Notes: generated from the letters alone by a model not told the origin. 64,000 nt of DNA from an uncultured Chlorobiaceae bacterium (GCA_903939765.1 CAJAIK010000115.1:55871-119870), one strand, 5' to 3'. Shown: positions 23,215 to 39,773, counted from the first letter of the stretch. Made by a program: numbers and translations.

Positions 23215-23236
23215 AAGACTTTTTTACCGTTTTTCA

Positions 23237-24291: not shown

Positions 24292-24364
24292 CGTCTTACT
24301 GATACGCAGAAAGGTAACTCTGCATTGTGATCATTGCAAGTTCATGATTTCAGGAACGTCACCT
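24292..24364 (-). repeat. R-repeat copy 2
   Basis: CTGCATTGTGATCATTGCAAGTTCATGATTTCAGGAACGTCACC. It lies ~130 nt upstream of the BRO-Fic gene and abuts the truncated TPM fragment. Confidence 0.7.
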
Positions 24365-24583
24365 CCTCACAGGGCAATTCTGCAACGTCCCATCAACCGC
24401 TACGTTTCGGCCGAAAACCCACCATGAATCCCTACTATCCGACAATGTCCGGTTTACCTCCTGGGAGAGAAGCTGCGCATTGTCCGTGATCCTGCCGGTC
24501 AGATAAGGAACGTCTGCAGCAGGAAGTATCGTGCTGATCATCAGCATGATCGGAAGTAACAGGATGATCAATCGTCTCTTCAT
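24359..24583 (-). pseudogene. N-terminal fragment of a TPM-domain protein
   Basis: A signal peptide plus VPYLTGRITDNAQLLSQEVNRTL matches the start of TPM domains. Similarity is lost after ~50 aa, and the frame runs into the R-repeat. Confidence 0.5.
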
Positions 24584-24771
24584 AGTCCCTCCTCCTCGAT
24601 AATTTCATTGGGCAGTTCGTTTTCCGCTGCTTCCCGGCAGGTGGTTCTCAGTATGCCCCTCCTTTTCCGGGTAGCAAACAGCTCCCGGTCCAGAAAGAGT
24701 GATTTTGCATACTGCTGCACTTCCGCCTCAGCGCGATAGCTGCGCTCCTGATCTGATACGATTTGTTTCAT
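24580..24771 (-). CDS. Hypothetical small protein (possibly a relic)
   Basis: A 63-aa ORF with a 4-nt overlap onto the TPM fragment. I recognise no motif. Confidence 0.25.
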   Translation of the reverse strand: MKQIVSDQERSYRAEAEVQQYAKSLFLDRELFATRKRRGILRTTCREAAENELPNEIIEEEGL

Positions 24772-25147
24772 TCAGTATCCCTGTATCCGAAGATTATTAT
24801 AATCGCCCTGTCCAGATAGCTTGCAGAAACCTGACCTCCTTTCCGCTCCAGTCAGGATTAAAAGCTTGATTTCATCCTCTGATTTCGGCAATAACAGATT
24901 GACGGAAAAATTACAGAATAAATGGAGATCCGTCAAGAAATCCAGGAAAAACACCTTCGTAAATCCCGAAACCGAGCGCGACCCTCATTTTGTTTTGTGC
25001 AGAACAACTTTTGCCGATTGCTCCCATTATCTCCGCACAGCATCACTGCAATGGATGTGAATGCACAGGGTAGCTGAATGGATTTTGTTTTAAGCGCACT
25101 CCCCTCTATATTTGATCTGATAAATAGCTTGGTGTGACTCATACCGA

Positions 25148-26068: not shown

Positions 26069-26123
26069 AAAAGTTAACGGTTATGTACTTTCACTGAATA
26101 ATCGTAAATCCCACGGTGTGCTT

Positions 26124-26474
26124 TCAAAAAAAGTACCGTGTTGTTTCCGATGCCTTTCTGTTGAGAGGGTCATGCCCACACAAATCTTTGGATGTCAACT
26201 TCTTTTTGACAACCAGCTTCCGATGTACTCTTTCAAGGAACACCTCTTCTTCACAGGCGATTGACTTGTATCTGTTCTGAAATAGATGGCCGTACCTGTA
26301 ATTGCATCGATTGCAACTGATCGAGTATCCGGCAAGAAACTTCCTCATGAATGCAGAGAGTCCCGGTTGACCGCTTTTGAGAAGGATATGCGCATGATTA
26401 GTCATCAGCGCCAATTTATGCACCGATCTGTCCTTTATATAAGTCATAGATTGGAAAAAACAAATCGGAATCAT
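26124..26474 (-). pseudogene. Fragment of an IS200/REP-associated Y1 transposase (RAYT-like)
   Basis: LMTNHAHILLKSG ... GHLFQNRYKS matches the HUH/Y1 transposase core. The N-terminal half is absent, and the ORF overlaps the 3' end of the 866-aa gene. Confidence 0.6.
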
Positions 26475-29016
26475 TCCAGTTCAAATTTCCATCAATCAAT
26501 GAAAAGCTGGCGAATTTACTTTCGTCCAAATATTTCTTAATCGATGGATGAAGCGATTTTGATAAAAAAGGTTTGAAATCAACAAGTCTTTCATTTCCAT
26601 CGTTAAATCTTATCCGAATTGCATAATCGGACAGATATTTCGCAGAATCAATTTTCAACTTGTCATTATAATCTGTGCATGAGAAATTAAATTTTGTTTT
26701 CCTTTTTTTGCTTGTTTTATACTCATACTGCACACCAAAGCTTACCTTATTTGAACGAAATTTAGATAACTTTTCAAGAAAAAAACTATTTAACTTTTCT
26801 TCATTTGGGTGATTTAAACCTTCGTATTTTAGTTTACATATTATTTGAGTTATTTTATAATTACCTTTACCATGCTCATTATGGCCAGTGATATTTGCCT
26901 TTTCGTTTATTTCTTTTCCATTTGGAATATCCACTGTTATAGACTCTAATACTGGAGCATCGTAAAACACTTTATCTACCTCTTTTTTTCTTCCCCATTC
27001 TTGCGCTGTATCACAATACATTAATAAAAACTCCAGTGGAAACGACTCAAAACAAATATAGCCAATGTTAGTATCCTCTTTAAGCGTTTTATAAGTACAT
27101 GAATTATGCATAGATATTGCTAATGCAGCAAGATATATCTCTACAATTCTTTTACTCGTAGAACCATGATCGCCAATATAGTTACCCTCTATAGTTTTCA
27201 TAAAAAGATTTATTAATAATATGGCGCTTAGCACTCCATGATCTTGGTTGTCCTCTATAGCTTGAATATAATTTTTTAGCAATTCAGTTTTATTCGTCCG
27301 TTTATCTTCATCTTGAGAAACAAAAAATCTTGTCAATTCTGTTATTGTATCAATATAGCTTGCCTTATTTTTCTTACTTGACAAAATGCTTCCCCAATCT
27401 ATATGAACAGGGATATCCGCAAGTAAATTATCTGATATAAATTTTTGCATTGTCTTATCATATTGCTGAAAAATATATGCAATATCATGAAATAGAGCAA
27501 TTAAAACCCATATTCTCAGCACCCCCTCATCATCAATTTCTATTTCTTGATATTCTTCAACATTTTGAAGCCTTTTATTAATCTTTTTCTTTATTTCACC
27601 TATACCAATAGCATTTATAAATATATATCCCATAACAAAAACATGAAATTGATGCATAAAATGATCTCTATATTTTTCTGTACTATATAGCATCAGCTTT
27701 TCATGATCCATAAAATCAATTAATTTTTTCTCTGTAAGATCATAATACTTCTCCATATCAACAGACTTAAAAACATCCTTAATATAAAGCATTGTCCTTA
27801 TCATTATTTCTTCATAACCTATGTATGTGTGTCGTTGGAAAACAAAAAACAAATGTTTTGTCAAATCATAAATCTTCCTATTACCCTTTATTTCTGGATT
27901 TACTTTATTACTGATATTTATTATAGCATCAATCATTTTTTTTCCTTGAAATAATTGATCATAAGAACCTATATCAGTAATTCCAAGACTTACCTCAATA
28001 ACTTGCAAACACAATTGATTTATAACTTTCAACAAATCTTCTTTTCCTTTTATTTCAATAGTATCCGGCGCCTTGTTCATCAACTCACGTATATCTTTAT
28101 ATACTTGATTTCGTCCTTCTTCTGAATCGTTATAATTATCAAGCCTTACAACACCTTTTATTTCATTTGATATATTATCACAAATAGGAATAACAACAAG
28201 CTCTTTACATTTACTGTGTATCCCTCTCTCTGTATCATCATTTTTTCCACGTACCTTAGCACCTATACTATTCGCATTCTTACTGCCATCACTATTTTTA
28301 TCATATATTTGATTCTCTATCATTCTTACACAAATGTTGCGTCTCGCAACCATAGCAGTTATACCTTCTCCTTTTATATGCATAACTTCTTTACCAACTA
28401 TTTTATCTATCTTATCAATGACTATATATTTATTTGGCCTAGTTTCGTAATCATATGTCCAGTGTTGTTTTTTTTCTTTTTTTTCACCATAAGAATCCTC
28501 TACTCCAATGAATTTCAAAACCTTATAAGGAGTATCATTTGCGTCATACACTATTACCCTATTAATGGCGCCAGCAGATTTATCTCTTCCCTTTTCATTA
28601 GTAAAAGTAATTTCAACCAATTCTTTAGTGATTTTTGAATCATCTTCTTCATTAGTAAGCCTGATGATATCGTCTTCTTTGATATCTATTTTTTCATTTT
28701 CAAAAGTAAACGTAAATTTGTGTTCGCTTTCTTGTTTTTCAATTTTCCCTTTTTTACCAGCAAATTCGATTACACCACTTTCATGATGAGAGCCGTTATC
28801 ACCGTTATTAACTTTATATTCGAATATTATTTTCCCCTCTGCAAATCTTTTTTTAAACTCATCTTCTTTTTCGTTTTTATGCATTGAGCCTGGCACTGAA
28901 ATCAAGTATAATGCACACGCATCATAACTAAAATATTTTTTTACTGTTAATAAAAACGATTTTATGGGCTCCCTAATTTCAAACCTTTTGTTCTCAATAG
29001 AAGTCATATTTTTCAT
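26416..29016 (-). CDS. 866-aa multidomain protein: split GAF-like N-domain, HD-superfamily-like central domain, C-terminal DUF2442
   Basis: GAF-like: SYDACALYLIS ... GEGITAMVARRNICVRM ... ELVVIPICDNISNEIKGVVRLDN. HD-like: RDHFMHQFHVF, ALFHDIAYIFQ, DHGVLSA, ISMHN, MYCDTAQEWGR. DUF2442-like: YAIRIRFNDGNERLVDFKPFL...GNLNWNDSDLFFPIYDLY. The gene is strongly AT-rich. Confidence 0.7.
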   Translation of the reverse strand: MKNMTSIENKRFEIREPIKSFLLTVKKYFSYDACALYLISVPGSMHKNEKEDEFKKRFAEGKIIFEYKVNNGDNGSHHESGVIEFAGKKGKIEKQESEHKFTFTFENEKIDIKEDDIIRLTNEEDDSKITKELVEITFTNEKGRDKSAGAINRVIVYDANDTPYKVLKFIGVEDSYGEKKEKKQHWTYDYETRPNKYIVIDKIDKIVGKEVMHIKGEGITAMVARRNICVRMIENQIYDKNSDGSKNANSIGAKVRGKNDDTERGIHSKCKELVVIPICDNISNEIKGVVRLDNYNDSEEGRNQVYKDIRELMNKAPDTIEIKGKEDLLKVINQLCLQVIEVSLGITDIGSYDQLFQGKKMIDAIINISNKVNPEIKGNRKIYDLTKHLFFVFQRHTYIGYEEIMIRTMLYIKDVFKSVDMEKYYDLTEKKLIDFMDHEKLMLYSTEKYRDHFMHQFHVFVMGYIFINAIGIGEIKKKINKRLQNVEEYQEIEIDDEGVLRIWVLIALFHDIAYIFQQYDKTMQKFISDNLLADIPVHIDWGSILSSKKNKASYIDTITELTRFFVSQDEDKRTNKTELLKNYIQAIEDNQDHGVLSAILLINLFMKTIEGNYIGDHGSTSKRIVEIYLAALAISMHNSCTYKTLKEDTNIGYICFESFPLEFLLMYCDTAQEWGRKKEVDKVFYDAPVLESITVDIPNGKEINEKANITGHNEHGKGNYKITQIICKLKYEGLNHPNEEKLNSFFLEKLSKFRSNKVSFGVQYEYKTSKKRKTKFNFSCTDYNDKLKIDSAKYLSDYAIRIRFNDGNERLVDFKPFLSKSLHPSIKKYLDESKFASFSLIDGNLNWNDSDLFFPIYDLYKGQIGA

Positions 29017-29124
29017 TTTATTTGTGTCCTATTAAGTTTGTTATATAAAATTGGCTCTTCAAAAATTTTAATGGGAAAAAATATATATCCACGTACCGAG
29101 TCATGTGAGGTTTATTCATCTTAA

Positions 29125-29162
29125 GGAAAACAAATATACGATTACAAACAATACACGTCAAG
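29125..29162 (-). promoter_or_regulatory. Promoter-like element (Bacteroidetes-type TTG-N20-TATATTTG) upstream of the 866-aa gene
   Basis: The minus-strand reading is CTTGACGTGTATTGTTTGTAATCGTATATTTG. It shares a 15-nt identical core, AAATATACGATTACA, with 30612-30626. Confidence 0.4.
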
Positions 29163-29268
29163 TTTTTTTTCAGTTCTGAGTGATAAATCCTAAGGACAGT
29201 AGGTTGTGAGCGGCTTAATACGAATCCTCGGTTCAGGATTCTAGTTCTGCTACGGTTTCATTACTCCC

Positions 29269-29353
29269 GTTCAACCATTCGGTTCAATTTTCCGGTAAAA
29301 TCCGCAACGGTTACCAAGCAAATACCCGGCAACAATGGCTGAATGGGTTGAAT
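29269..29353 (-). repeat. attC-like imperfect palindrome E
   Basis: GTTCAACCATTC (29269-29280) pairs with GAATGGGTTGAAT (29341-29353) with one bulged base. Inner arms TTTTCCGG/CCCGGCAACAA also pair. Read on the minus strand, the ends are ATTCAAC...GTTGAAC, which fits RYYYAAC...GTTRRRY. It begins 13 nt after the RhuM stop. Confidence 0.55.
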
Positions 29354-29366
29354 AGATACATCCCTT

Positions 29367-30428
29367 CTACTCATCGCCCCCCTCCTTCGGCTTCTGCAGA
29401 GACTCGACCTCCTTGAGCATGCGGTCAAAGTCGCTCTCAAAGAGCCGATCCTGAACGATCCGGTACTTTTCAAACTCGCTTTCGGCGTGTGCTCTGGCAA
29501 TTTCTGCTGTTACTTTGCCCGGATCCTGTAAGATCTCACGATCGGTCGCTGCGATGAAGCGATTAAGGCGGGTTTCCCAGTCCTGCATGGTCATGGGCAT
29601 CTTGCGCTGCGCCATGTCCTCGGCAACATCGAGGTATGCCGAAACCAACCGTGCAAGTTGTGCCATTTCGTGTTCTGTCAGGTAATTCTTTGCAACCACA
29701 ACATCGAACTTCTGGATCTTTCCTCCGGGCGCATCCTTCCATGTGGTCAGCCCCATATTCTGTTTTTCGGCATCTGCCCGGTTAAAGATGACCTCCGCTG
29801 CGGTCTGACCATGTATGGCCCAGTGCAGTTTATTCTGCACGGTGGCGAAAAAGCGTTTGGTGGCCTGGGCTGTCACGTCGTAGTCGATGGAGGTTGCATA
29901 GATGTCGGTGACCTTCTGATAGAACTTGCGCTCGGAGAGACGAATCTCCCGAATACGCTGCAACTGCTCTTCAAAATACTGGTCGGTAAGGATGGAGCCA
30001 CCGCTTTTCAGGCGTTCATCATCCATGGCATAACCCTTGATGGTGAACTCCTTAATGATAGAGGTCGCCCACTTACGGAACAGTACGGCACGTTCGGAGT
30101 TTACCTTATAACCGACAGCAATAACTGCTGCAAGACTGTAGTGTTTGGTGTTGTAACTTTTTCCATCGGCGGCAGTTATTCGAAAATTTCGAATAACTGA
30201 TTCCTCCTGTAATTCGTTGTCTGAAAAAACTTTTTTCAGGTGATAGTTGATGGTATGAGTCGCCACATCGTAGAGCGCCCCCATCATCTTCTGGGTAAGC
30301 CAGATATTCTCATCTGCATAAACCGCATCAATGCCGCCAGTGCCGCTGGCAGCGATAAAGGTCAGATATTCAGCCGCCGAGGAGCGGACGATAGAGACCT
30401 CCTTACCTGATTTTTTTCTCCCGCTCAT
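29367..30428 (-). CDS. RhuM-family protein
   Basis: SSAAEYLTFIAASG ... ENIWLTQKMMGALYDV ... YNLDAVIAVGYKVNS-like (here YSLAAVIAVGYKVNSERAVLFRKWAT) is typical of RhuM. I prefer the ATG at 30428 because it is preceded by GAGGGTGAAGG. Confidence 0.8.
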   Translation of the reverse strand: MSGRKKSGKEVSIVRSSAAEYLTFIAASGTGGIDAVYADENIWLTQKMMGALYDVATHTINYHLKKVFSDNELQEESVIRNFRITAADGKSYNTKHYSLAAVIAVGYKVNSERAVLFRKWATSIIKEFTIKGYAMDDERLKSGGSILTDQYFEEQLQRIREIRLSERKFYQKVTDIYATSIDYDVTAQATKRFFATVQNKLHWAIHGQTAAEVIFNRADAEKQNMGLTTWKDAPGGKIQKFDVVVAKNYLTEHEMAQLARLVSAYLDVAEDMAQRKMPMTMQDWETRLNRFIAATDREILQDPGKVTAEIARAHAESEFEKYRIVQDRLFESDFDRMLKEVESLQKPKEGGDE

Positions 30429-30553
30429 GCCTTCACCCTCTTGCCTATCAAAAGGCAAGCCATCGGTTCGCCCTTGAGTGCTGGCTGCATCCCATCGCCA
30501 GAGAAGTGTTTGTTTTCCTCGACATCCAGCTCGGAGAGAGTTTTTTTATCCAT
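30425..30553 (-). CDS. Possible 42-aa upstream ORF translationally coupled to rhuM
   Basis: MDKKTLSELDVEENKHFSGDGMQPALKGEPMACLLIGKRVKA. Its TGA overlaps the rhuM ATG (ATGA). It lies downstream of the promoter-like 15-mer. Confidence 0.3.
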   Translation of the reverse strand: MDKKTLSELDVEENKHFSGDGMQPALKGEPMACLLIGKRVKA

Positions 30554-30609
30554 TGGAAAACTGCAAGGGTTATAGGAACCTCTGAGTAGAATAACTCGTT
30601 TTGCAAAAA

Positions 30610-30642
30610 GGAAATATACGATTACAGCCAAAGCACCGCAAG
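30610..30642 (-). promoter_or_regulatory. Promoter-like element upstream of the rhuM cassette genes
   Basis: The minus-strand reading is CTTGCGGTGCTTTGGCTGTAATCGTATATTTCC. It has the same 15-nt core as 29132-29146. Confidence 0.35.
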
Positions 30643-30737
30643 AACAACAAAATTCTGTCCGTCTATTGCACCGCATCACCTATTTCCTGCACTGTTGCAA
30701 CGTGCCTGACGAATCGAGTCTTGTACCTCTCGGCATG

Positions 30738-30817
30738 CCTCTACTTGTTAGGTTAGTATCGTAAAAAATTAACGCTGCATTGCGGTGATTGCAAGTTCAT
30801 GATTTCAGGATTGTCCC
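30738..30817 (-). repeat. R-repeat copy 3
   Basis: CCTCTACTTGTTAGG..CGTAAAAAATTAACGCTGCATTGCGGTGATTGCAAGTTCATGATTTCAGGATTGTCCC. It starts 16 nt from the end of attC-like site A. Confidence 0.7.
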
Positions 30818-30833
30818 TTCATCCCCTAATTGC

Positions 30834-30977
30834 ACTTAACGGCTGACGCTATGGCAAGTGCGGGAATAAATTGTTGCTCAACTGTCTGCAAGCACAAATG
30901 TAAGTAAAGATTTCAAATGTTTCAACGAACACGCAAGCCCGCATTTGCTATAGCACATGCTATAGCGTTTGTTATGC
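30834..30977 (-). repeat. attC-like imperfect palindrome A
   Basis: The left arm ACTTAACGGCTGACGCTATGGCAAGTGCGGG pairs with the right arm CCCGCATTTGCTATAGC...AGCGTTTGTTATGC. It begins 13 nt after the Fic stop. Confidence 0.6.
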
Positions 30978-30990
30978 ACCGTTCTTATTT

Positions 30991-31596
30991 TTATTTATTG
31001 GTTTCAATTAATTCAAAAATCAACTCTGTTAATATTGCTACTTCACTTTCAATAGTCCCTTTCATATATCTTTCGTAAACACTTTTATTGTCGGGAGGGT
31101 TAAGGTTTAAAGTCAAACCCTTTTCTAACGCTAACATTCTTACAAACTCCCTTTGCGTTCGCCCGTTTCCTTCTCTAAAGGGGTGTAAATAATTTACATT
31201 GTCCAAAATTTCTGCTAACTTCTCCGCTAAATGCTTTTTGTTGTTCTTTGGAATTTTCTTGAATTCAGTTATTAAAGTTTCAACGTATCTGTAAGCATTG
31301 TCAAAATGTGTAGTTGGAAAAAATTGTTTTCTGTCTTTGCTAATTTCAACAATCCGTTTTTTTCCAGCTCAAGCGTATATGTCTTGAAATAGTTGTTTGT
31401 GAATTTCAAAAAGACTTTCAATTCCCTTAATCTTTATCAGATTTTCATAAAGTTCTTGTAGTCGTTTAGTAACAGCTCCGCTCTCAACAAATAATAATAC
31501 ATCAGGGTCTGTAATATTTTGAATATTTCTTAGTAGTCCTGTCTTTGGGTCAGTATAGGTGTAGTCAGGGTCAATGTATTTATAAGAATTAGACAT
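30991..31596 (-). pseudogene. Fic/Doc-family toxin (FicT/VbhT-like) interrupted by a single in-frame TGA
   Basis: ORFs 31369..31596 and 30991..31206 are in the same frame. My translation across the gap is ...QDIYA*AGKKRIVEISKD...NVNYLHPFREGNGRTQR. The stop at 31369-31371 sits where Fic proteins normally have W (YxWAG). The Fic motif is intact. Confidence 0.75.
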
Positions 31597-31810
31597 ATGC
31601 TTTTTCTTTAGCTAATATCACCAATTCACTCATTGAAATTTTCCCAGCGACATAGTCTCTGATTATTTCAATTCCTTTCGGAGTTGGGTTAAAACCTTCA
31701 AACATATTACTTCCTAAAGCACTTGCTGTGCTTTCTAATGTTTTCAAGTCTAAAAATTCCACTCCCATTATGGTTAGTTTGGCTCGGTCAATTTCAATTG
31801 TGTTAAACAT
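31589..31810 (-). CDS. VbhA-like Fic antitoxin
   Basis: 73 aa carrying the inhibitory S-x-x-x-E-G motif (SNMFEGF). It overlaps the start of the Fic gene by 8 nt. Confidence 0.7.
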   Translation of the reverse strand: MFNTIEIDRAKLTIMGVEFLDLKTLESTASALGSNMFEGFNPTPKGIEIIRDYVAGKISMSELVILAKEKAYV

Positions 31811-31889
31811 ATTTTCAGATTTTAAATCAATTACAAATTAACAACATTTTTCTGAATCTTTCGCCTATGTTCCGGTGTTTTAGAATGCA

Positions 31890-32022
31890 GCCTAACGGTT
31901 GAGGCTATATGCAAATGTGGGCGATTGCGGACTTCAAACTTATCAAACCGTGATAATTTAAAGCGGGCTATAGCCCTTGAATTTAGTACAATATCGCCCA
32001 TTTTGTATATACAGTGTTAGGG
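31890..32022 (-). repeat. attC-like imperfect palindrome B
   Basis: GCCTAACGGTTGAGGCTATATGCAAATGTGGGCGA pairs with TCGCCCATTTTGTATATACAGTGTTAGGG. The minus-strand 3' end is GTTAGGC, a canonical core site. Confidence 0.6.
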
Positions 32023-32192
32023 GCTTTATTATCATTATTTCAATTTTATACAAAGAGAATAAGCTAAATCATAATTGAAATGCAAGTCTAATCTTTTGAG
32101 CTGCTCTTTTATATTTACAAATCCTTTTTTGTATAAGTATCTTTAATTTTATGCTTATTTGAGAAAATTACTTAAACTAACATTGCTGTCTA

Positions 32193-32552
32193 TCAATGAT
32201 GTTCTTCGAAATATCGGTAAGCAGCACGACCAAGAAGTTCAATAATCCCAACTGCAATACCTATCTTGACAGGTATTGTCCATGGATAACCAAGATTTGC
32301 AGACTCCAAGCCAGTAATAGCAGCAGCGTGAGCTCCTACACCAACAGCAGATGCAATAAGAGCAGTTTGAATACCCTTTGCTGTGGATTTATCAATATCC
32401 ACTCCAAATAGTGACCCAATATGTATAACCATTAATATTTCCTCTGCAATAAGAGCAGCTGCATCGGCACCGACAGGAAGTGCACCAGCAGTTGCGCCTC
32501 CAGTAGCAGCCCATTTATGGATCAGATTCAAATGTTTTTGCGGTATACTCAT
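32193..32552 (-). CDS. Hypothetical Gly/Ala-rich membrane-associated protein (DUF697-like)
   Basis: 119 aa. ALPVGADAAALIAEEILMVIHIGSLFG resembles the YcjF/DUF697 region. This is the only ORF in its cassette. Confidence 0.4.
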   Translation of the reverse strand: MSIPQKHLNLIHKWAATGGATAGALPVGADAAALIAEEILMVIHIGSLFGVDIDKSTAKGIQTALIASAVGVGAHAAAITGLESANLGYPWTIPVKIGIAVGIIELLGRAAYRYFEEHH

Positions 32553-32884
32553 GTCCTTTATTCCTTTATATTGTTAAGTTATTGAAATTAGTATTGAATG
32601 CATTTAATATTTCGGTATACAATGTTTCTAAAAGTTTTTTATTAGTTTATTTTTCAATTATACAGTCATAAAAAAATCAACTACATTTATTATTGAAAAA
32701 CAGAACTAACCGTTAGCTCTAAAAATCATATTTCAGGCTATTTGCGCATAACGATTGTGTATAGTTATTATTCTTATCCCGCCGAATTGGAGGAATAAGA
32801 ACAATTGTTCATATTTCTCTTTTATCATTCTTACTTCTATGTTAATTTCTCCTTACTCAATAATCTCATCAATTGCCATTTTAT

Positions 32885-33017
32885 GTATAACGGTTTGCGG
32901 CTTAGCGTAGTGGCGGATTTTTAGCACAATAGTTCAATCGAAGAACTGCACTTGAACATACCACTAAGCTTTCATACGAAGCGCGGCACCCGCCATTACG
33001 CCAAACCGCTGTTAGGT
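32885..33017 (-). repeat. attC-like imperfect palindrome C
   Basis: GTATAACGGTTTGCGGCTTAGCGTAGTGGCGG pairs with CCGCCATTACGCCAAACCGCTGTTAGGT. It begins 9 nt after the methyltransferase stop. Confidence 0.6.
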
Positions 33018-33026
33018 GTAGTTATT

Positions 33027-34091
33027 TTACACATTTTTTGGCTTTGGTAGTCTTGATATAGCTTCACCTGCTCCCCTATACAATGGTAATCCTAATAAAT
33101 TCAAAGTTTCACAATGTGTCGGCTCTGGAAATTGATAATTATGTAAATCTTTTGATGCTATGAAAATTAATCTCCTTCTCTTTTGTGGCGTACCATAATC
33201 GGCAGCCAAAAGTTCTCTATGAGTTACCTCATATCCAATTTTATCAAAGGACTGGTAAATCAAGTCTATCATATTAACAGACTTTACCTGCGCCATCCCG
33301 TAAACATTTTCCATAACAACAACTGATGGAGATAAATATGAAACATGGTCAATGAAATTTGAATAAAGCTTACCAAGTTGGTCGCTAACAGCATTTTGTT
33401 TACCCGCAACACTAAACGGTTGGCATGGTGGACCGCCAATAATTATGTCAGGATTTCCACCGACTACCTTTTTCACTGTTTCTGGATCTAGTTTTCTGAT
33501 ATCAGCGAGATGAAAATTCCATTCGGGACGGTTAGTGTCAATAGTTGCTTGTGCCCACTTTTCGATATCAGTACAAAATTTGGTTTCAAATGATATGAAA
33601 TTATCTTTTGCCTGCTCGAAACCTAAGTCAAGTCCACCTGCTCCTGAAAAATATGATGCAATTGTTTTGATTCCACCTTGATTTTTTCGCTCAAAATATT
33701 TAGCAACTGAGCCCGCAATCGCTTTGCCTAAATTAACTGGAACAGCATTTCCAATTTGTTTTTGAATTTGACCTAACGTGCCTTTGAATATCCAGTCATG
33801 TGGAAAATCTTGAAGACACGCGGCCTCTCTTGGGGTTATATAACGGTCTTCGGTTGGATGAACAAACTTGTTAAATATAAAAGCCGTGACTGTTAAGGAA
33901 GGTTTGTCCTTCTCTAATCTTAAAAGTCGCATGTTTGGCCCACCTGTTTTTTTATCTCCTTTTCTTTCGAAGCTTTCATGTTGGAGATGTTTGGGAAGAT
34001 CTCCCATCTTACCCCCAGGAGCCAAATGCTTTATCCTTTCTAAAACAAGACCTGAATACTCTCTTGTAATATGATTTGGTATTTCCTTCAT
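33027..34091 (-). CDS. DNA (cytosine-5)-methyltransferase with circularly permuted motif order
   Basis: The order along the protein is a TRD-like region, IX (RYITPREAACLQDFP), X (GNAVPVNL), then I (FSGAGGLDLGF), IV (GGPPCQPFS), VI (ENV) and VIII (QKRRR). Confidence 0.85.
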   Translation of the reverse strand: MKEIPNHITREYSGLVLERIKHLAPGGKMGDLPKHLQHESFERKGDKKTGGPNMRLLRLEKDKPSLTVTAFIFNKFVHPTEDRYITPREAACLQDFPHDWIFKGTLGQIQKQIGNAVPVNLGKAIAGSVAKYFERKNQGGIKTIASYFSGAGGLDLGFEQAKDNFISFETKFCTDIEKWAQATIDTNRPEWNFHLADIRKLDPETVKKVVGGNPDIIIGGPPCQPFSVAGKQNAVSDQLGKLYSNFIDHVSYLSPSVVVMENVYGMAQVKSVNMIDLIYQSFDKIGYEVTHRELLAADYGTPQKRRRLIFIASKDLHNYQFPEPTHCETLNLLGLPLYRGAGEAISRLPKPKNV

Positions 34092-35203
34092 ATTTCTTTT
34101 CCGCCTTGGATTGAATCTGTTAAGTTAATGATATAATCAAAAACATATCTCAAGTCTTCTCGTTTTAGATATGTCAAGGATTTATCAGTTACTAAATCTC
34201 CTTCGTTGCCCCATAGCATACCTTTAAATGGATCTACATAAACTTCCCCATGCCGCAACGCTGGTAAGTTAGAGATTATGGCAGTTTTAACATTTTGATG
34301 TTTGTATTTTGTGCCAATCTTAAGAACCTGATAAATACCTTTTTTGATATCATCAGTTCGATCCATTCCAGCGCTAGTTTTGCTGTCACTAATTGATTCT
34401 CCTTGTGGCCATCCATCCTTTTCCTTGGCAACGTTTGGCGGTGCCCCTGAAGCATTCGCTAAATAATAAAACTTAGAAGTTCTATCCTTTTCGGCATATG
34501 CGACTTTAGTTTTTTGCCAAATTTTGAATGAGGATTCAAGTTCTTTTAAGTTACCTTTATCTTCTAAATGATCTGCAAAGGGTTTAAATGGCCAATTTTC
34601 AGATTTGACTTTACCTAAGTGGATATATGATTTGTCGTGTAGATAGATAGCAGAGTTTAATTCTCTGAACTGTGAACTTGTTAATGATATTTTGGAGTGA
34701 GCAAGATTTGTAGTTTTGGGAATTTGAAATAGAAGTGGAAACGTGAGTAATGGTGCAGATTTTACTTCCGCTAAAATTACGAAGCCATTTTTATGTTCTA
34801 TTAATGCATCTGCAACTTCTGTCCCTCCAATAGCGAAAACGCATTTAAAATCGTCAAATAAAATCTCAATAAATTTTAGAATCATTTCGCTGCTTAGTTT
34901 GCCCAAAGCACCCGATTGCGGTTTTGCAGCTTTTTGATAAGTCCATGTTTCATTCTTTTCATAACAAGGACTGCATAGATTTATAAAACCCAAATGGGCA
35001 TTATAACTTTCCGGGCACGAAGGACAGGTTTCAACATATTTTTCAATTCCCGATGTTGAGTCGATAAAAGCAAGTGACATGCAGATGTCAAAAATAAAGG
35101 CTCTGTATTCTGGCGGTTTACTTTTAGTCCACTTGATTATTCGCACAGCATCATCATGCCATGGATATTCTTTGAGGGGTACTTTTTTATTCAGTTCTTC
35201 CAT
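34088..35203 (-). CDS. Putative type II restriction endonuclease (PD-(D/E)XK-like)
   Basis: 371 aa. Its stop overlaps the methyltransferase start (ATGA). There is a candidate D...E-x-K motif (VADALIEHKNGFVILAEVKS). I recognise no other family. Confidence 0.5.
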   Translation of the reverse strand: MEELNKKVPLKEYPWHDDAVRIIKWTKSKPPEYRAFIFDICMSLAFIDSTSGIEKYVETCPSCPESYNAHLGFINLCSPCYEKNETWTYQKAAKPQSGALGKLSSEMILKFIEILFDDFKCVFAIGGTEVADALIEHKNGFVILAEVKSAPLLTFPLLFQIPKTTNLAHSKISLTSSQFRELNSAIYLHDKSYIHLGKVKSENWPFKPFADHLEDKGNLKELESSFKIWQKTKVAYAEKDRTSKFYYLANASGAPPNVAKEKDGWPQGESISDSKTSAGMDRTDDIKKGIYQVLKIGTKYKHQNVKTAIISNLPALRHGEVYVDPFKGMLWGNEGDLVTDKSLTYLKREDLRYVFDYIINLTDSIQGGKEI

Positions 35204-35218
35204 TTCTTTTTTAATTAC

Positions 35219-35350
35219 ACCTAACGGTTTGCAGCTACAAGAAGTTGGCGATTTCGAAGCACTAAACTGTCAGCCACCACTGAACTTAATGCGAAGCACA
35301 AAGCTTCATTTAACCACTGAACCGCCAATTTCTTGTAGGTGCTGTTATGG
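35219..35350 (-). repeat. attC-like imperfect palindrome D
   Basis: ACCTAACGGTTTGCAGCTACAAGAAGTTGGCG pairs with CGCCAATTTCTTGTAGGTGCTGTTATGG. It begins 9 nt after the stop at 35360 and ends 15 nt before the endonuclease ATG. Confidence 0.6.
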
Positions 35351-35359
35351 GCTGGCTTT

Positions 35360-35569
35360 CTACTGTTTGTCGTCATTAGTCCCTTGTTCCCATTGCTTTT
35401 TCTTGTCCGCTTCTTCTTTCTTTTTGTTAGCACGACTTATTAAAAAAGCACCTAAAACTATGAAGGTCACACCCGCAAAATTAGGTTGTCGTCCTGCGAT
35501 TGTACCCATAATTCCGCCAAGTGTCGAAAGACAACCGATTACAAGTATTACAATTCCTGTTGTTTTCAT
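35360..35569 (-). CDS. Small two-TM membrane protein with Lys/Glu-rich tail
   Basis: 69 aa, with two hydrophobic helices followed by KKKEEADKKKQWEQ. It is the last gene of the five-gene AT-rich operon. Confidence 0.5.
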   Translation of the reverse strand: MKTTGIVILVIGCLSTLGGIMGTIAGRQPNFAGVTFIVLGAFLISRANKKKEEADKKKQWEQGTNDDKQ

Positions 35570-35575
35570 AGTCCT

Positions 35576-35773
35576 TTAGTTTTGCTCGTTTTCTTTTTTT
35601 ACATCTACAAAGTCAACGGAGTCAACTTTCTTTGAAAAAAGAATTATTATTACTCCGATAATTGGTGAAAGAAAAAGGCAGAGAACAAAGCTCCAGCCAT
35701 ATCCGATTTTGCGGTTTCTACCAAGTAAGGCAACAAGTGCCGCAACGATTGCAAGTAGTACGATTTTTTCCAT
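35576..35773 (-). CDS. Small two-TM membrane protein
   Basis: 65 aa: MEKIVLLAIVAALVALLG...FVLCLFLSPIIGVIIILFS. There is a 6-nt gap to the next gene. Confidence 0.5.
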   Translation of the reverse strand: MEKIVLLAIVAALVALLGRNRKIGYGWSFVLCLFLSPIIGVIIILFSKKVDSVDFVDVKKENEQN

Positions 35774-35786
35774 TTTGATTTTATTT

Positions 35787-36206
35787 TTAAAAGTTAATAT
35801 TTAATTTTTGAGTTGCTTCTTCTTTTAATTCAAGCAAACGCTTGACATTATTTTTATTTTTTGAAATCTCTTGAAAGATATTCTCTGCAATTATGTTCTT
35901 TTCCTTGTCTGTTGGAAAGCGGTCTGGATGGCACTTTACTTTTAGTTCGTCATAAAGTTGAATTGAATTGAAAGAACTGTTGATGATGTTTCCGAAGTCA
36001 ATATCTTGTTTCAAAGATTCGTTTTTGAAACGTTGTTTGGCTGTGTCTTTCGGTTTGAGTTGTTCCTTTAAGATTAGAAATGCAATAATCCCAAATTCGG
36101 CTATGGCAAGCCACATCCACCAATTTGTTTGTGCTCCATTTTCTGTTGTTTTTGTAATAGCTTGTCCTGCTACTTTGATGCTGTCTTGTATTAAAGTATC
36201 ATTCAT
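35787..36206 (-). CDS. Membrane-anchored J-domain-like protein
   Basis: One TM helix (WWMWLAIAEFGIIAFLIL), then LYDELKVKCHPDRFPTDKEKNIIAENIFQEISK. That matches the helix II-HPD-helix III pattern of DnaJ J-domains. Confidence 0.55.
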   Translation of the reverse strand: MNDTLIQDSIKVAGQAITKTTENGAQTNWWMWLAIAEFGIIAFLILKEQLKPKDTAKQRFKNESLKQDIDFGNIINSSFNSIQLYDELKVKCHPDRFPTDKEKNIIAENIFQEISKNKNNVKRLLELKEEATQKLNINF

Positions 36207-36603
36207 TTTCGTTGAATTTAGGAAGTGGTATATAATCTTTTAATTGCCATCTGCAACCGTATGTTCCAGCGTCACCGTGTATTTCTAAAGTGTCCCAACC
36301 GAGAACAATTAGTCTGCGAACCAAAACATCATCGTCAAGAATTACTTTTCCGATATGAATTAGTTCGTCTTTTGTCAGCACTCTGCCTGTAAAAGCTTGA
36401 ATTCTAAAGCCAGTATTTAGCCAATTTGAAAATTGATGTTTATATGAACTTTCTCCTTTTGAAATGCTTGCTTTCAATAATGTTGGTGCGATACCAGCAA
36501 CAAATGAAGTCCTTGCGGATTCATTGAAACTGCGAACAAGTTTTGCTCTTTCGCTTCTGTCCCGAAACCAGTCGAGTATGTTATTCCAAGTGTTATCTAA
36601 CAT
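36199..36603 (-). CDS. Hypothetical cytoplasmic protein
   Basis: 134 aa. It overlaps the downstream gene by 8 nt. I recognise no motif. Confidence 0.5.
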   Translation of the reverse strand: MLDNTWNNILDWFRDRSERAKLVRSFNESARTSFVAGIAPTLLKASISKGESSYKHQFSNWLNTGFRIQAFTGRVLTKDELIHIGKVILDDDVLVRRLIVLGWDTLEIHGDAGTYGCRWQLKDYIPLPKFNENE

Positions 36604-36616
36604 CTTTTGTTTGTTT

Positions 36617-37156
36617 TTATAGTTCCTTTAATGAATACATTATTCGGTTCATTTTGTCTTTGTATTCATATTCTTTGTTTGATAAAGTCCAAGCCATAAT
36701 TTGATAGTATCTCTCTTTTCCTTGAATGAACGCTAATGAATAATAAGCATCAATTCCTTCAGCTCGTCCGCTTACTGTTAAAAGTCTTGCAGGCATATTG
36801 TTAATTGTTGTATCAATAATTTCAGACTTATGAGATACAGATATTGCCTGTTCAAATCCGTTCATAAGTAGTTCTGAGTAACCTTTAATATCGTTAGTGT
36901 AAGTTTCGGTGAGGTTATTGTCGTCCAAAGCTTTTTGCATTTCAGCTTTGGATTCGTCTATAACGATTACATAAAACTCTTTCCAAGCGTGTTGATATTG
37001 TAATGATGCATCATCATTTAGTCCGCTTGCTTTGGTCAAAAATGAAGGTATGGCAACTGAATATTTATTTTCAATTGTTACGGTTTGTTGCTCGTCACCT
37101 GATTGGCACGAGTTCAATGACAAAATTGTCAAAAGTAGAATTGTGATTTTTTTCAT
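36617..37156 (-). CDS. Hypothetical lipoprotein
   Basis: MKKITILLLTILSLNSCQSG is a lipobox. I prefer the ATG at 37156 to the longer ORF start at 37216, which would overlap the inverted repeat. Confidence 0.55.
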   Translation of the reverse strand: MKKITILLLTILSLNSCQSGDEQQTVTIENKYSVAIPSFLTKASGLNDDASLQYQHAWKEFYVIVIDESKAEMQKALDDNNLTETYTNDIKGYSELLMNGFEQAISVSHKSEIIDTTINNMPARLLTVSGRAEGIDAYYSLAFIQGKERYYQIMAWTLSNKEYEYKDKMNRIMYSLKEL

Positions 37157-37211
37157 TGTCTGTCTGTCTTTAAGCTTGCCCATAACTCCTTTATATATGC
37201 ACCGTATCACA

Positions 37212-37262
37212 CTCAAAGGTGTATAAAACCAGCTATTTTGTCATGCTTTATACACCTTTGAG
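37212..37262. repeat. Perfect 16-bp inverted repeat (CTCAAAGGTGTATAAA / TTTATACACCTTTGAG) with a 19-nt loop
   Basis: Seen directly in the sequence. It sits between the recombinase stop (37277) and the first cassette-like gene. No T-tract follows it on the minus strand. Confidence 0.6.
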
Positions 37263-37276
37263 GTGAATAATATTTT

Positions 37277-38731
37277 TTACAAATTATCAAAGGGGCTGGA
37301 AATTTTTAGTAAACTCTGTTCGCATACATGGGTATAGATTTCTGTCGTCTTACTGCTCTTATGCCCTAAGAGCTCTTGTATGTATCGAAGATCAGTTCCC
37401 GCTTCCAGTAAATGTGTTGCATAAGAGTGCCGCAACCAATGAAGCGTTACTGGTTTTTTGATTTTTGCATGATCGAGTGCATGTTTTAACACTTTTTGCA
37501 AGCTGGTTTCGCTGTACTGTGTACCAGGTTCTTGACCCTCAAACAACCAAATCCTGGGGCGATATATTTTATAATATTCCCGCAACATTACAATCACTTT
37601 GTCCGATATGGGAATGACTCTGTCTTTTTTTCCTTTTGCATTGACTATTATCAATAAATGCCTTTTCGCATCAACATTCTCAGGTTTGAGATTCAACAAC
37701 TCTCCCCGTCGAAGACCACAGGCATAAATCAAGCTCAACATCGTACGATGTTTGAGGTTCTGTGATGCATGAAGTATAGCTGCAACATCCTCCTTGCTCA
37801 GCACGTTGGGCAGCTTATGTTCTGGTCTTGGCCGCTCGATCTGTTCTGTTATGAGCTTTGAACCTTGAATTGTTTTGAAAAACAATCTTGCTGCGTTAAC
37901 GGTCTGGTTTTGATATGATTGGCTTAACTTCTTCGGTAGCATAAACTGGTGAACGAATCGCACCATATCATCGTTGGTCGCTTCGGTACTCCTTTTGGGT
38001 TTAATAAACCTCAAAAAAGTGGTAATGGCTTGTGTATAGGTCTTTATCGTTGATTCGCTGTATCGCTTGTGCTCCATCCACTGTTTGAAGGCGGCAATTT
38101 CATCATGGTTGACTTTGTCCAACAACGGCAAATCGGTAATAACTTCGTTTGCCGGGTAGTTCAATTTCGGATTTTGCGGTAGCGCAATTACGGTTTTTAT
38201 ATTTGTGATACGCTGACCAAAGTAATTTCTTAACAAGTCAATATTTTTGCCGTAGTTCGGTATGACCCAGCAAAAATTATTGCTGTTCCACCTCACATAT
38301 TTGAAGGTACGAATGAACTGTATATCCGTCTCATTCTTAGGCATTGTAACGGTAATTTGTTTCGGGGATATTTCGATAGCGATTCCGTTGTGTTGCGTAA
38401 CATTTTGCAGATCTGCTTTTATCGCAGTTTTCACTTCAGATTGCGCCTTTACCGAAGGTGCTGGCACCGGTGGTTCATTGGTAGCTTCCGTTAGCTCTTC
38501 GGTACCTGACTTATTTGTTGAACCTGCAGGATCTGGTACGACTATATCCGGAAATAGCTTCATAAATTCGCCAAAAGCTTCCTCGGTGAACGGGATATGC
38601 CAAGCTCTGAGTGTCTTGCTCCAGGCAGCGCCTTCAATATGTCTTATCTTATTTATAATGAAATCATTATAGGCAAATACGAGTTTCAACCGATCCTCGC
38701 CCCGGTAATTTATTTTGCTGGTCTGAATCAT
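37277..38731 (-). CDS. Tyrosine recombinase/integrase (Xer-like catalytic domain with a ~290-aa N-terminal extension)
   Basis: It has the catalytic residues ACGLRRGE (R), KGKKDR (K), HWLRHSYATHLL (H-x-x-R) and LLGHKSSKTTEIYTHV (H, Y). The N-terminus holds two similar units (AAWSKTLRAWHIP and RWNSNNFCWVIP). The gene is AT-rich. Confidence 0.9.
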   Translation of the reverse strand: MIQTSKINYRGEDRLKLVFAYNDFIINKIRHIEGAAWSKTLRAWHIPFTEEAFGEFMKLFPDIVVPDPAGSTNKSGTEELTEATNEPPVPAPSVKAQSEVKTAIKADLQNVTQHNGIAIEISPKQITVTMPKNETDIQFIRTFKYVRWNSNNFCWVIPNYGKNIDLLRNYFGQRITNIKTVIALPQNPKLNYPANEVITDLPLLDKVNHDEIAAFKQWMEHKRYSESTIKTYTQAITTFLRFIKPKRSTEATNDDMVRFVHQFMLPKKLSQSYQNQTVNAARLFFKTIQGSKLITEQIERPRPEHKLPNVLSKEDVAAILHASQNLKHRTMLSLIYACGLRRGELLNLKPENVDAKRHLLIIVNAKGKKDRVIPISDKVIVMLREYYKIYRPRIWLFEGQEPGTQYSETSLQKVLKHALDHAKIKKPVTLHWLRHSYATHLLEAGTDLRYIQELLGHKSSKTTEIYTHVCEQSLLKISSPFDNL

Positions 38732-38975
38732 AGTTTTACAACTCCTTCCAACGAAAAATAACCCGTCAATACAGCGTCGCTTATTTAGTCACTGTGCTGT
38801 GTGAAAGGCTCCAACTTTTCAAGCTACAAAGTACAGATATATTTCAAAATATTTATCTTAATCTCTTGTTTATGCATGCTTAGGTGCGCACCGATTCACG
38901 ATCCGTTTCACCTGACATGTAAGAAAGTCTCCTGCACGTGAACCTGAGATGCACCGCCTCCCCTGTTTCTGCTCC

Positions 38976-39773
38976 TCACGCCCCCGTCTTCACCGGTAAC
39001 ACCAGCCGGAATCCCCGGAAATCGTTAACCGCTTTGGAAACAACAAACGAGCGCTGCGAACAGCGGAAGGCGAACTTGTCGGGATAACGCCAGCAGCCGC
39101 CACGTTCCTGGCGGAGAGATTCTTCACCGGAGGTGATGTTTGCGGAATCGGTTTCTTCGTGCCAGACGGAACACCACTCCATGACGTTGCCGCTCTGGTT
39201 CCAGGTTCCGTAGCCGGAGACCCCTTCGGGATAGGCGTAGGCCGGGGCAACAGAATCCGCCCCCCGGTTGTTCCGGTTCCGACAGTTGTTTTCATCCCAC
39301 CGGTCTCCCCACGGGTAGATTGATCCTTCCGGCCCGCGTGCGGCCTTTTCCCACTCGGCTTCCGTGGGCAATCGGCATCCCGCCCAGCGGGCGTAGGCTT
39401 CTGCGTCGTCCCAGTTGATGAGCACGACCGGGTAATCGTCGAACTCTTCGGGACAGCCATCTTCGTGCCAGACCGAAAGTGAGTCAATCCTTGCGCCGAT
39501 GTTTGGTGGCCGATGGCCCGTAGCCTGTATGAAAGCCCTGTACTGGCGATTGGTGACGGCATAGACTGAAATGTAGAATGCGTCCAGGCAGACGGTGTGC
39601 TGCGGGCTCTCTTTGTCGAAGCCGTCTCCCATGGTGAAACTTCCTGCGGGAACAAGCACCATGGGAGAACTGTCCTGTTCGTTGACGATTACCGGAGGCA
39701 GCTTGCCGCCGGAAGGACGGAGCGCGAGTCTTCTGAGTTCGGTAAGGATTTCGTTATGTGCTGGTGTATTCAT
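38976..39773 (-). CDS. FGE-sulfatase (SUMF1/EgtB/PvdO) fold protein, cytoplasmic
   Basis: MVLVPAGSFTMG, YAVTNRQYRAFI, INWDDAEAYARWAGCRLPTEAEWEKAARG, GNVMEWC and RGGCW...FRGFRLV match the fold. It has no signal peptide. I prefer the ATG at 39773. Confidence 0.8.
   Translation of the reverse strand: MNTPAHNEILTELRRLALRPSGGKLPPVIVNEQDSSPMVLVPAGSFTMGDGFDKESPQHTVCLDAFYISVYAVTNRQYRAFIQATGHRPPNIGARIDSLSVWHEDGCPEEFDDYPVVLINWDDAEAYARWAGCRLPTEAEWEKAARGPEGSIYPWGDRWDENNCRNRNNRGADSVAPAYAYPEGVSGYGTWNQSGNVMEWCSVWHEETDSANITSGEESLRQERGGCWRYPDKFAFRCSQRSFVVSKAVNDFRGFRLVLPVKTGA

Follow-up and report, generated by a model that had tools for sequence, protein, structure and literature searches.

A probable integron-like gene-capture platform with a Xer-like recombinase and 126-nt hairpin sites in an uncultured Chlorobiaceae bacterium

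The closest known counterparts of the locus described here are the integrons, especially the sedentary chromosomal integrons and the 'inverted intI' group of Spirochaetes, Chlorobi, Cyanobacteria and Planctomycetes. Canonical integron attC sites, as in aadA7 or the Vibrio cholerae repeat (VCR), consist of 7-bp R boxes, an unpaired central spacer and L boxes; two to three bases are extrahelical, all on the bottom strand's R''/L'' arm. Here, we analyzed a stretch of 64,000 nucleotides from an uncultured Chlorobiaceae bacterium (GCA_903939765.1, CAJAIK010000115.1:55871-119870; hereafter the window), for which an original prediction made from the sequence alone had proposed an array of attC-like palindromes next to a tyrosine recombinase gene. 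We compared it with related loci (labels L###) that were found either by their recombinase gene (recombinase-seeded) or by their sites (site-seeded). Very probably, the window holds a chromosomal integron-like gene-capture platform with a Xer-like recombinase, an attI-like site and a co-oriented array of at least four cassettes bounded by the palindromic sites A-D, with more cassettes probably following.

Integrons and the window locus have many features in common. In both, the insertion site borders on a recombinase gene and is followed by an array of cassettes in one orientation, most of them holding a single operon; each cassette closes with an imperfect palindrome whose end boxes are ...AAC and GTT..., and the crossover falls within GTT. 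Cassettes bear the signature of a circular form and enter at attI, stems are conserved by structure over sequence with the gene-antisense strand as the favoured fold, and the cargo is rich in toxin-antitoxin and defence genes. In contrast to integron integrases, the window recombinase lacks the IntI insertion of about 42 residues (I2 helix), and this family has one or two extra N-terminal domains instead. Moreover, the outer box is 9 bp long (GTTA NNN GC), and in place of an unpaired central spacer and two to three extrahelical bases we find a 4-nt bulge by the box on the gene-distal arm, together with conserved G.G, G.T and A.C oppositions. The sites have a semi-conserved centre and hardly deviate from a length of 126 nt, and the hosts are mainly Bacteroidota and Chlorobiota.

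The extra IntI domain is reported to be necessary for activity (Messier and Roy 2001, cited in PMC2426708; PMC8138268), and integron surveys pick integrases by this domain (PMC2426708). Recombinases without it that lie near attC sites were set aside, among them four described as 'intermediate between IntI and Xer' (Cury et al. 2016, PMC4889954), which may belong to the family described here. One classification calls the insertion 'not fully conserved' in an integron-like subgroup (PMC8138268). We found no description of the present platform in the searchable full-text literature, which did not cover subscription journals, and an earlier description may exist.

The palindromes A-D (Table 1) lie where the original prediction had placed them, and direct comparison bore out their common arm ends, with xxTAAC-GGYTK at the start and YT-GTTAxx at the end; all four fold into long imperfect hairpins. 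TAACGGYT occurs nine times in the window, compared with 2.6 times expected. The distances from stop codon to site (9, 9, 13 and 13 nt) and the 15 nt from site D to the next ATG had also been given correctly. A pattern search of loci with relatives of the recombinase yielded sites that are built alike and almost all measure 126 nt (mode 126 nt, 132 of 222 sites). We built two covariance models, R1 from 16 sites (B, C, D and 13 from other loci) and R2 from 118 sites, none of them from the window. R1 scored 139.5 bits for D, 116.3 for C, 85.6 for B and 85.9 for A (E 2e-20), with A lying outside its training set, and R2 scored 142.1 bits for D (E 3e-32), 106.1 for C (E 2e-23), 71.4 for A and 66.6 for B (E 7e-14). 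Beyond A-D, neither model had a significant match in the window; a weak match of both at 38991-39033 (E 0.12-0.14), at the 3' end of a SUMF1-like gene, was judged to be due to chance. An Rfam scan of the window found no family at the sites and matched a cobalamin riboswitch alone.

As single-stranded DNA, B, C and D folded with z-scores of -2.3 to -4.0 (D -4.0 on the plus strand, B -2.9). Site A folded more weakly because of its 12-nt duplication, GCTATAGCACAT next to GCTATAGCGT at 30945-30968 in the 3' arm; 126-nt copies of this site occur in L009, L060 and L066. Copies of site C with 91-92% identity are present in L006 and L007. Read on the gene strand, sites start with gcNNN-TAAC-A, continue with a covarying stem of about 23 bp around a centre of about 66 nt, and end in AAACC-GTTA-NNNgc. 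The original prediction had staked its case on a consistent box architecture, and this is what we found across 131 unique 126-nt sites, in which TAAC and GTTA are invariant. Its attC-like layout stood for the AAC/GTT end boxes but not for the inner architecture, with its 9-bp box, 4-nt bulge and conserved mismatches. The centres of A-D, described as unrelated, are not wholly so, as motifs such as AGCAC and ACTGTC are shared family-wide.

Stem pairing was conserved by covariation. Among the 16 sites of R1, 15 of 23 predicted pairs showed compensatory changes. In the 118-site alignment (A4), 95.3% of cells were paired compared with 67.4% after shuffling, although the fitting of this alignment to the model inflates its pair counts; the covariation score was 0.63 as opposed to 0.16 in shuffled alignments, with none of 500 shuffles as high, and controls with slid partners gave 0.05-0.09. 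An independent, ungapped count over the 131 unique 126-nt sites agreed on the conserved pairing. Numbered on the TAACGG ('bottom') strand, positions 6-9 form the 4-nt bulge (G/T)TTT, on the 5' arm of the bottom strand and far from the gene. Conserved oppositions in the 131 sites are G.T at 5/122 (98%), G.G at 13/118 (60%), G.T at 23/108 (90%) and A.C at 30/101 (78%). The two G.T pairs at 5/122 and 23/108 turn into A.C mismatches on the gene strand. In line with this, 165 of 221 sites folded better on the TAACGG strand, which is antisense to the genes (mean difference -1.7 kcal/mol, p = 3e-19).

The recombinase is the sole tyrosine recombinase of the window, as originally stated, and the count of 59 residues between its KGKKDR and HWLRHS motifs was correct. 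Its alignment to VchIntIA (2a3v) breaks at the IntI extra segment (about 42 residues, I2 helix), where 17 residues stand against 59 in IntI; the reported lack of the IntI insertion was hence confirmed. Archaeal XerA (PDB 4a8e, 5hxy) can be aligned over the full length of the core-binding and catalytic domains (130 bits). The NCBIfam model XerA_Arch (cutoff 220) gave 219.5 bits. The integron-integrase model TIGR02249 reached 199 bits (cutoff 265), in two stretches, and PRK15417 reached 124 (cutoff 435), while XerD gave 191 (cutoff 330) and XerC 176 (cutoff 335). By score, the enzyme stands about midway between XerA and IntI. The N-terminal extension is duplicated, as had been proposed, but measures about 205 aa, two domains of about 60 aa plus a linker, rather than about 290 aa. 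Both domains were modelled by AlphaFold2 with a predicted local distance difference test (pLDDT) score >90, and the linker is variable; one copy alone is found in some relatives, for example in a Chryseobacterium plasmid protein. No Pfam family matched the extension even at E<=10, and PF22823, listed for it in precomputed tables, was not reproduced.

The host is a relative of Chlorobium. Recombinase copies in Chlorobiaceae genomes are 90-95% identical, and relatives across Bacteroidota are about 50-65% identical. The gene is multi-copy within one contig (L005, L007) and also occurs on plasmids. This contig, CAJEXI010000008.1, carries two platforms about 30 kb apart, the second of which shares window sequence only up to 39068 (compared 38950-39068) and is preceded by DNA like window 22687-23141, which suggests that the platform itself was duplicated or moved. 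In four Chlorobiaceae loci (L018, L048, L060, L065; compared with window 37940-38746), the recombinase is N-terminally deleted and residues 265-484 or 409-484 are left. These platforms are decayed and can be compared to integrons with an inactivated intI.

Recombinase and sites are tightly linked. The 67 recombinase-seeded loci contained about 60 sites. In these, site density was 1.52 per 10 kb downstream of the recombinase gene as opposed to 0.12 upstream, a 13-fold difference; 22 of 34 loci had a site on the downstream side and 2 of 50 had one on the upstream side, and none of 42 sites was in the wrong orientation. Scanning metagenome contigs with an 18-base site pattern gave at least 120 site-seeded loci, and in the first 80 of them R1 made 175 hits, with arrays of up to eight sites. 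No locus out of 140 had sites on both strands. Among the 120 site-seeded loci listed, five contained a tyrosine recombinase; all five were of this family and in the expected position, and none was IntI. The link between recombinase and sites is no by-product of locus selection. With an IntI1 query entered by hand (residues 180-262), the related loci, about 1.2 Mb in all, yielded no match to the IntI insertion; the hits of this query behave as expected for a tyrosine recombinase.

Site arrays follow close and distant recombinase relatives alike, in Chlorobiaceae, Ignavibacteriales and many Bacteroidota. Comparison of these sequences shows that recombinase family, attI-like site and attC-like sites have been passed on as a set, from Chlorobiaceae to Flavobacteriia. 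Cultured carriers are Flavobacterium magnesitis (contig NZ_JBCFQK010000009.1) and Chryseobacterium sp. SNU WT5. The latter has a 66-kb plasmid (NZ_CP041688.1, L188) with a recombinase relative annotated as 'site-specific tyrosine recombinase/integron integrase', an attI-like junction ...GACATATAAACAA/GTTG (here and below, a slash marks the junction) and at least six sites, each behind a gene. IS110 lies within the plasmid array, and the stretch 20680-22661 holds a group II intron (Rfam RF02001, RF00029, reverse transcriptase gene) that is antisense to the cassette genes and directly abuts the site at 22528-22661. Class C group II introns are known to insert antisense at integron attC hairpins. 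Furthermore, a truncated recombinase relative, with 65% identity over residues 318-484, is located on the Salmonella enterica IncC plasmid CP082616.1 (L189, 7535-10812), where its neighbours are a RhuM gene, likewise truncated, and mph(G)-mef(C) for macrolide resistance, next to ISVsa3; CP082616.1 had no A-D-family sites.

A fixed junction marks the start of the arrays. Across loci, an attI-like junction ...ATATAAAGGA/GTTA is conserved 90-105 nt after the recombinase stop codon, and 22 of 31 loci have, at this distance, GTT[AG] followed by 5 nt complementary to the outer box of the first site. The preceding sequence aligns across loci and reads ...GGTGCATATATAAAGGA/GTTA in Chlorobi-type loci and ...ACATATAAACGA/GTTA in Bacteroidota, there with an inverted repeat just upstream. 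The window junction is the minus-strand GTTATGGGC (plus-strand positions 37178-37186, crossover triplet GTT at 37184-37186), and a perfect 16-bp inverted repeat lies upstream of it (37212-37227 / 37247-37262). From 37181-37183 to beyond 43046, the window shares 90-92% identity with L005, L006 and L009; this stretch holds the recombinase gene, the SUMF1-like gene and an AAA ATPase gene. This identity is lost exactly at GTTA, and the cargo differs.

From junction to junction, a simple rule holds. The 5 nt past GTTA are the exact reverse complement of the 5 nt that precede the TAAC of the next downstream site. This held perfectly in 25 of 32 adjacent pairs of sites defined by covariance model and in 69 of 96 pairs of a larger set defined by nhmmer, compared with 2.5-3% of random pairs and 10 of 222 cases within one site. 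In the window, the complement is perfect from attI to D (TGGGC) and from D to C (GGTGT). As the outer box of a cassette is completed by the first bases of the same cassette, the free cassette would be a circle.

Related genomes showed exchange of such cassettes. One cassette, 99.3% identical, directly follows attI in L007, whereas in L006 it comes directly after the first site, and its breakpoints coincide exactly with /GTTA; attI of L006 carries a different first cassette, and the two loci diverge right after GTT at the far end of the shared cassette. A further cassette (97%) is flanked by other neighbours in L007 than in L064. Variation among related strains therefore falls exactly at the junctions, where the original prediction had called for it. 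These comparisons show, at the level of sequence, that cassettes are discrete units exchanged by recombination within the invariant GTT, as in integrons (G/TT), and that new cassettes enter at attI.

The units between sites D, C, B and A that had been named originally, a five-gene operon, a restriction-modification pair, a 119-aa open reading frame (ORF) and VbhA-Fic, were recovered as cassettes 1-4 (Table 1), and all genes of interest are indeed on the minus strand. In the wider set, the longest ORF lay on the recombinase strand in 64 of 71 cassettes; its stop codon preceded TAAC by a median of 23 nt, and the median spacer length was 1.3 kb. The window cargo consists mostly of defence and toxin genes, namely the restriction-modification pair, VbhA-Fic, RhuM, BroN-Fic and the DUF1016 nuclease. 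None of the five genes of cassette 1 matched a Pfam or PADLOC family. Cassette 3 contains an inverted TAACGGTT fragment at 32708-32715 and so may have been rearranged. The block from the junction of B through site A is 97% identical to L060 7261-8308. In cassette 4, the Fic gene is interrupted by an in-frame TGA (31366-31368, minus-strand codon) at the conserved Trp of the Fic 'YxWAG' motif, and the 97%-identical cassette of L060, another genome, has the same TGA (about 7550-8185). This is either an inherited toxin knock-out or the sign of a cassette from a host that reads TGA as Trp.

Table 1. Features of the platform and its cassette region in the window, in array order (minus strand, recombinase first)
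Feature	Position	Strand	Remarks
Tyrosine recombinase gene, 484 aa	37277-38731	minus	Pfam Phage_integrase 1.8e-38 and Phage_int_SAM_4
Recombinase domains	residues ~1-60, ~115-180; 214-292; 310-470		two N-terminal beta-beta-alpha-beta-beta-alpha domains; SAM-like core-binding domain; catalytic domain
attI-like region	37178-37276	minus	inverted repeat, then minus-strand ...GGTGCATATATAAAGGA/GTTATGGGC
Cassette 1	35225-37185	minus	five small genes; ends in site D
Cassette 1, lipoprotein gene	36617-37156	minus
Cassette 1, ORFs	36199-36603, 35787-36206, 35576-35773, 35360-35569	minus
Site D	span 35217-35352, core 35222-35347 (126 nt)	minus	5-nt outer-box extensions on each side; TAACGG ('bottom') strand is plus
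Cassette 2	32891-35224	minus	type II restriction-modification pair; ends in site C
Endonuclease gene	34088-35203	minus	PADLOC REase_II 3e-38
C5 cytosine methyltransferase gene	33027-34091	minus	PADLOC MTase_II 3e-89; Pfam DNA_methylase 1.9e-60
Site C	span 32883-33019, core 32888-33014 (127 nt)	minus
Cassette 3	31896-32890	minus	119-aa ORF 32193-32552 (weak DUF697 match) and 330 nt non-coding; ends in site B
Site B	span 31888-32024, core 31893-32019 (127 nt)	minus
Cassette 4	30840-31895	minus	VbhA antitoxin and interrupted Fic toxin gene; ends in site A
VbhA gene	31589-31810	minus	Pfam VbhA 2e-07
Fic toxin gene	30991-31596	minus	NCBIfam VbhT/Fic fragments
Site A	span 30832-30979, core 30837-30974 (138 nt)	minus	126 nt plus 12-nt tandem duplication
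Probable cassette region continuation	21950-30839	minus	low G+C; probably other or decayed site types
RhuM gene	29367-30458	minus	PADLOC candidate defence family
866-aa gene	26416-29016	minus	without PADLOC defence match
IS200-like transposase fragment	26124-26474
DUF4351 / Rpn-like gene	25148-26068	plus	48% G+C
82-nt element	24217-24308		ends AAGCAA/GTTAGCGGTC
BroN-Fic gene	23237-24163	minus	PADLOC candidate defence family
DUF1016/YhcG nuclease gene	21959-23119	minus	PADLOC candidate defence family

How cassettes might be moved can be proposed from these features. We strongly infer that the adjacent recombinase is the catalyst, which would carry out both insertion (attI x attC) and excision (attC x attC). 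The substrate is reasonably taken to be a folded single strand, likely the gene-complementary strand (plus in the window), because the stems covary and because this strand keeps the G.T wobbles that are A.C mismatches on the other. We may further speculate that the duplicated N-terminal domains read the 4-nt bulge and the mismatches of the hairpin, replacing the missing I2 helix of IntI. A lead only in this direction comes from the structural model of the extension, for which Foldseek matches at E 0.01-0.4 included TM1457, the XPB damage-recognition domain and the HARP domain of SMARCAL1 and might hint at recognition of distorted or branched DNA.

A number of observations weigh against a working platform of this kind. 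Two of the four testable window junctions disobey the complementarity rule (C to B 0/5, B to A 2/5); the mismatch from B to A is identical in L060 and is therefore inherited and no error. In view of these two junctions and the interrupted Fic gene, the window copy may be partly decayed or inactive, and several relatives have truncated recombinase genes. The bulge lies on the arm opposite to that of the canonical attC extrahelical bases, so that the analogy with integron site geometry is incomplete. In the Foldseek search of the N-terminal model against the PDB, nothing was found at E<=0.001 (best E 0.012). The hand-entered IntI1 query underlies not only the finding of no IntI in 187 related loci but also the searches for tyrosine recombinases in the window and in the site-seeded loci, and most loci are metagenome bins, some with doubtful taxonomic labels (Geobacteraceae, Desulfobulbus). 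To these points the inflated pair counts of the 118-site alignment must be added. Finally, recombinase catalysis, circular cassettes and single-strand recombination are all read from sequence.

The most serious alternative keeps the whole system but assigns it another chemistry, in which GTTA boxes would recombine as duplex or cruciform DNA by two Xer-type strand exchanges, instead of as a folded single strand with replicative resolution. Such a mode would suit a Xer-like enzyme without the I2 helix that integron integrases use on extrahelical bases, and the attI-like site has inverted repeats typical of duplex core sites; about one quarter of the sites, moreover, fold better on the other strand. 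However, about 110 nt separate the two boxes of a site, which are brought together only by formation of the stem, the stem covaries without sequence conservation, and mismatches and wobbles are conserved in a strand-specific manner. The antisense group II intron beside a site of the Chryseobacterium plasmid, if the analogy with integron attC sites holds, also argues for a hairpin. We thus consider duplex chemistry unlikely, and recombination of a folded strand is the mode we prefer.

Far less probable is the other reading offered by the original prediction, namely that A-D are ordinary attC sites forming an attC cluster that has no integron integrase (CALIN), left without IntI or served by it in trans, and that the neighbouring recombinase is unrelated. 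If IntegronFinder picked up the locus at all, its rules would make it a CALIN next to a recombinase with PF00589 only. Canonical integrons with IntI are known in Chlorobi (PMC9024848, PMC2426708), the end boxes loosely fit RYYYAAC/GTTRRRY, and the rest of the genome, where IntI could sit, lies beyond the window. Yet the attI-like junction is kept at a fixed distance from the recombinase gene across phyla, orientation and downstream position of the sites are strictly maintained, the site architecture is unlike canonical attC, and IntI was seen in none of the 187 loci. The system is also common in Bacteroidota, where IntegronFinder 2.0 found a complete integron only in Salinibacter (PMC9024848). 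Different from a CALIN, the recombinase lies directly upstream, has its own attI-like site and co-varies with the sites; this array is no orphan, since the association extends over >30 loci in several phyla. It is thus the original prediction's second reading, a cassette system served by a non-IntI tyrosine recombinase, that is supported by the co-travelling families, the fixed attI-like junction and the site-seeded recombinases, all of this family; the same evidence disfavours an unrelated integrase.

Nor does the locus resemble a Xer/dif system beyond the enzyme itself, whose core-binding and catalytic domains align with XerA of archaea without the IntI insertion. Xer proteins resolve chromosome dimers at one 28-31-bp duplex dif site, are encoded by single-copy housekeeping genes and have neither an N-terminal extension nor an array. 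In contrast, this family is multi-copy, occurs on plasmids and is tied to 126-nt hairpins, and the window recombinase scores below the curated cutoffs and has the 205-aa N-terminal extension. The pdif modules of Acinetobacter plasmids, accessory-gene modules bounded by XerC/D sites and often with toxin-antitoxin cargo, are discrete as are the cassettes here. Their sites, however, are 28-bp duplex dif-like sequences of alternating orientation that are used by the host XerC/D, and they have no dedicated recombinase gene, attI or long hairpin. The missing IntI domain and the differing inner site architecture mean that the locus is not an integron in the strict sense either; it should therefore not be filed as such, nor as a CALIN or Xer/dif system.

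An ordinary low-G+C genomic island with an integrase at its end, whose 126-nt palindromes would be repeats like miniature inverted-repeat transposable elements (MITEs) or repetitive extragenic palindromes (REPs), or else terminators, is hardly credible: G+C does drop sharply between about 26000 and 38800 (about 35%, compared with about 55% in the flanks) with the integrase at the edge, the sites do lie just past stop codons as terminators would, and an IS200-like fragment is found within the region, but terminators or MITEs would neither make successive junctions complementary nor set homology breakpoints exactly at GTT, the conserved wobbles favour the gene-antisense strand and not the mRNA, and relatives keep the recombinase and the upstream host genes in synteny, with the cargo alone differing from GTTA on. 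No long direct repeat flanking the block was seen among the repeats listed, in a search that was not exhaustive.

The cassette region of the platform probably runs down to about 21950, with the housekeeping gene trmB (21225-21839) as its probable far end. Neither R1 nor R2 found an A-D-family site in 21950-30839, and a search beyond site A for the complement of its junction (AGTGC) with TAAC found none. Palindrome E (29269-29353) and a weaker sixth candidate (26072-26146) had been counted with A-D in the original prediction. We dropped both as family members, as they matched neither R1 nor R2 at E<=10 with filters off, had no copies in related loci and failed the junction-complementarity rule. 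E ends in near-perfect RYYYAAC/GTTRRRY-like boxes and has one bulged G; it is therefore possibly another kind of site and could be a different, canonical-type attC.

The RhuM, BroN-Fic and DUF1016/YhcG genes of this lower array match the PADLOC candidate defence families PDC-S05, PDC-S04 and PDC-S02, and the RhuM and BroN-Fic blocks recur in other order in L003, L005 and L007. The 82-nt element, which ends ...ATATAAGCAA/GTT, is 96% identical at L007 2313-2394, where homology ends at GTT. The junction GTTAGCGGTC behind it in the window equals the junction behind a normal 126-nt site in L005, and the element is possibly a second class of cassette site. Like this AAGCAA/GTT element, the motif CCTGAAATCATGAAC belongs to the lower array. 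A repeated motif CCTGAAATCATGAACTTGCAATGAT..CAATGCAGAG precedes the RhuM, BroN-Fic and DUF1016/YhcG genes (minus strand, 30815 to 30770, 24355 to 24310 and 23212 to 23165) and is also found in L002 and L016. Perhaps these genes have a leader or promoter in common here, or else the motif may represent one half of another kind of recombination site. A direct repeat upstream of the 866-aa gene and of RhuM (29127-29162 and 30607-30642) carries GTAATCGTATATTT(G/C) on the gene strand. Bacteroidetes-type promoters contain the element TAnnTTTG, and the resemblance suggests that some cassettes may have their own promoter. The DUF4351/Rpn-like gene and the IS200-like fragment inside the cassette region may be later insertions.

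Ordinary host DNA adjoins the cassette region, with the cobalamin riboswitch (86 bits) at 20671-20913 (minus) in front of a TonB-dependent receptor gene at 18403-20403 (minus). A second low-G+C patch (36%) at 13283-13684 (minus) is a VapC/PIN toxin gene between cobalamin biosynthesis genes.

The platform follows the comparative rules of integron cassette exchange with a recombinase that is without the defining domain of integron integrases, and it hence challenges current definitions. A farther-reaching proposal, to which we would give even chances, is that of a second, so far unrecognized integron-type lineage native to Bacteroidota, Chlorobiota and Ignavibacteriota, on chromosomes and plasmids. 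Its Xer-like recombinase without I2 helix would act on folded single-stranded 126-nt sites by means of its duplicated N-terminal domains, possibly of the HARP/XPB type that binds branched DNA. If this is true, hairpin-site cassette capture evolved or persisted without a feature held to be essential, and integron surveys have missed a large cassette reservoir with many defence genes. The truncated relative beside mef(C)-mph(G) on the Salmonella IncC plasmid suggests a possible route of gene flow. If confirmed, the family would provide a natural test of hairpin-site recombination without the I2 helix and a new handle on the origin of integrons from Xer-like enzymes. Integron-finding software could then be extended to cassettes that have so far gone unseen, with their restriction, toxin-antitoxin and candidate anti-phage genes.

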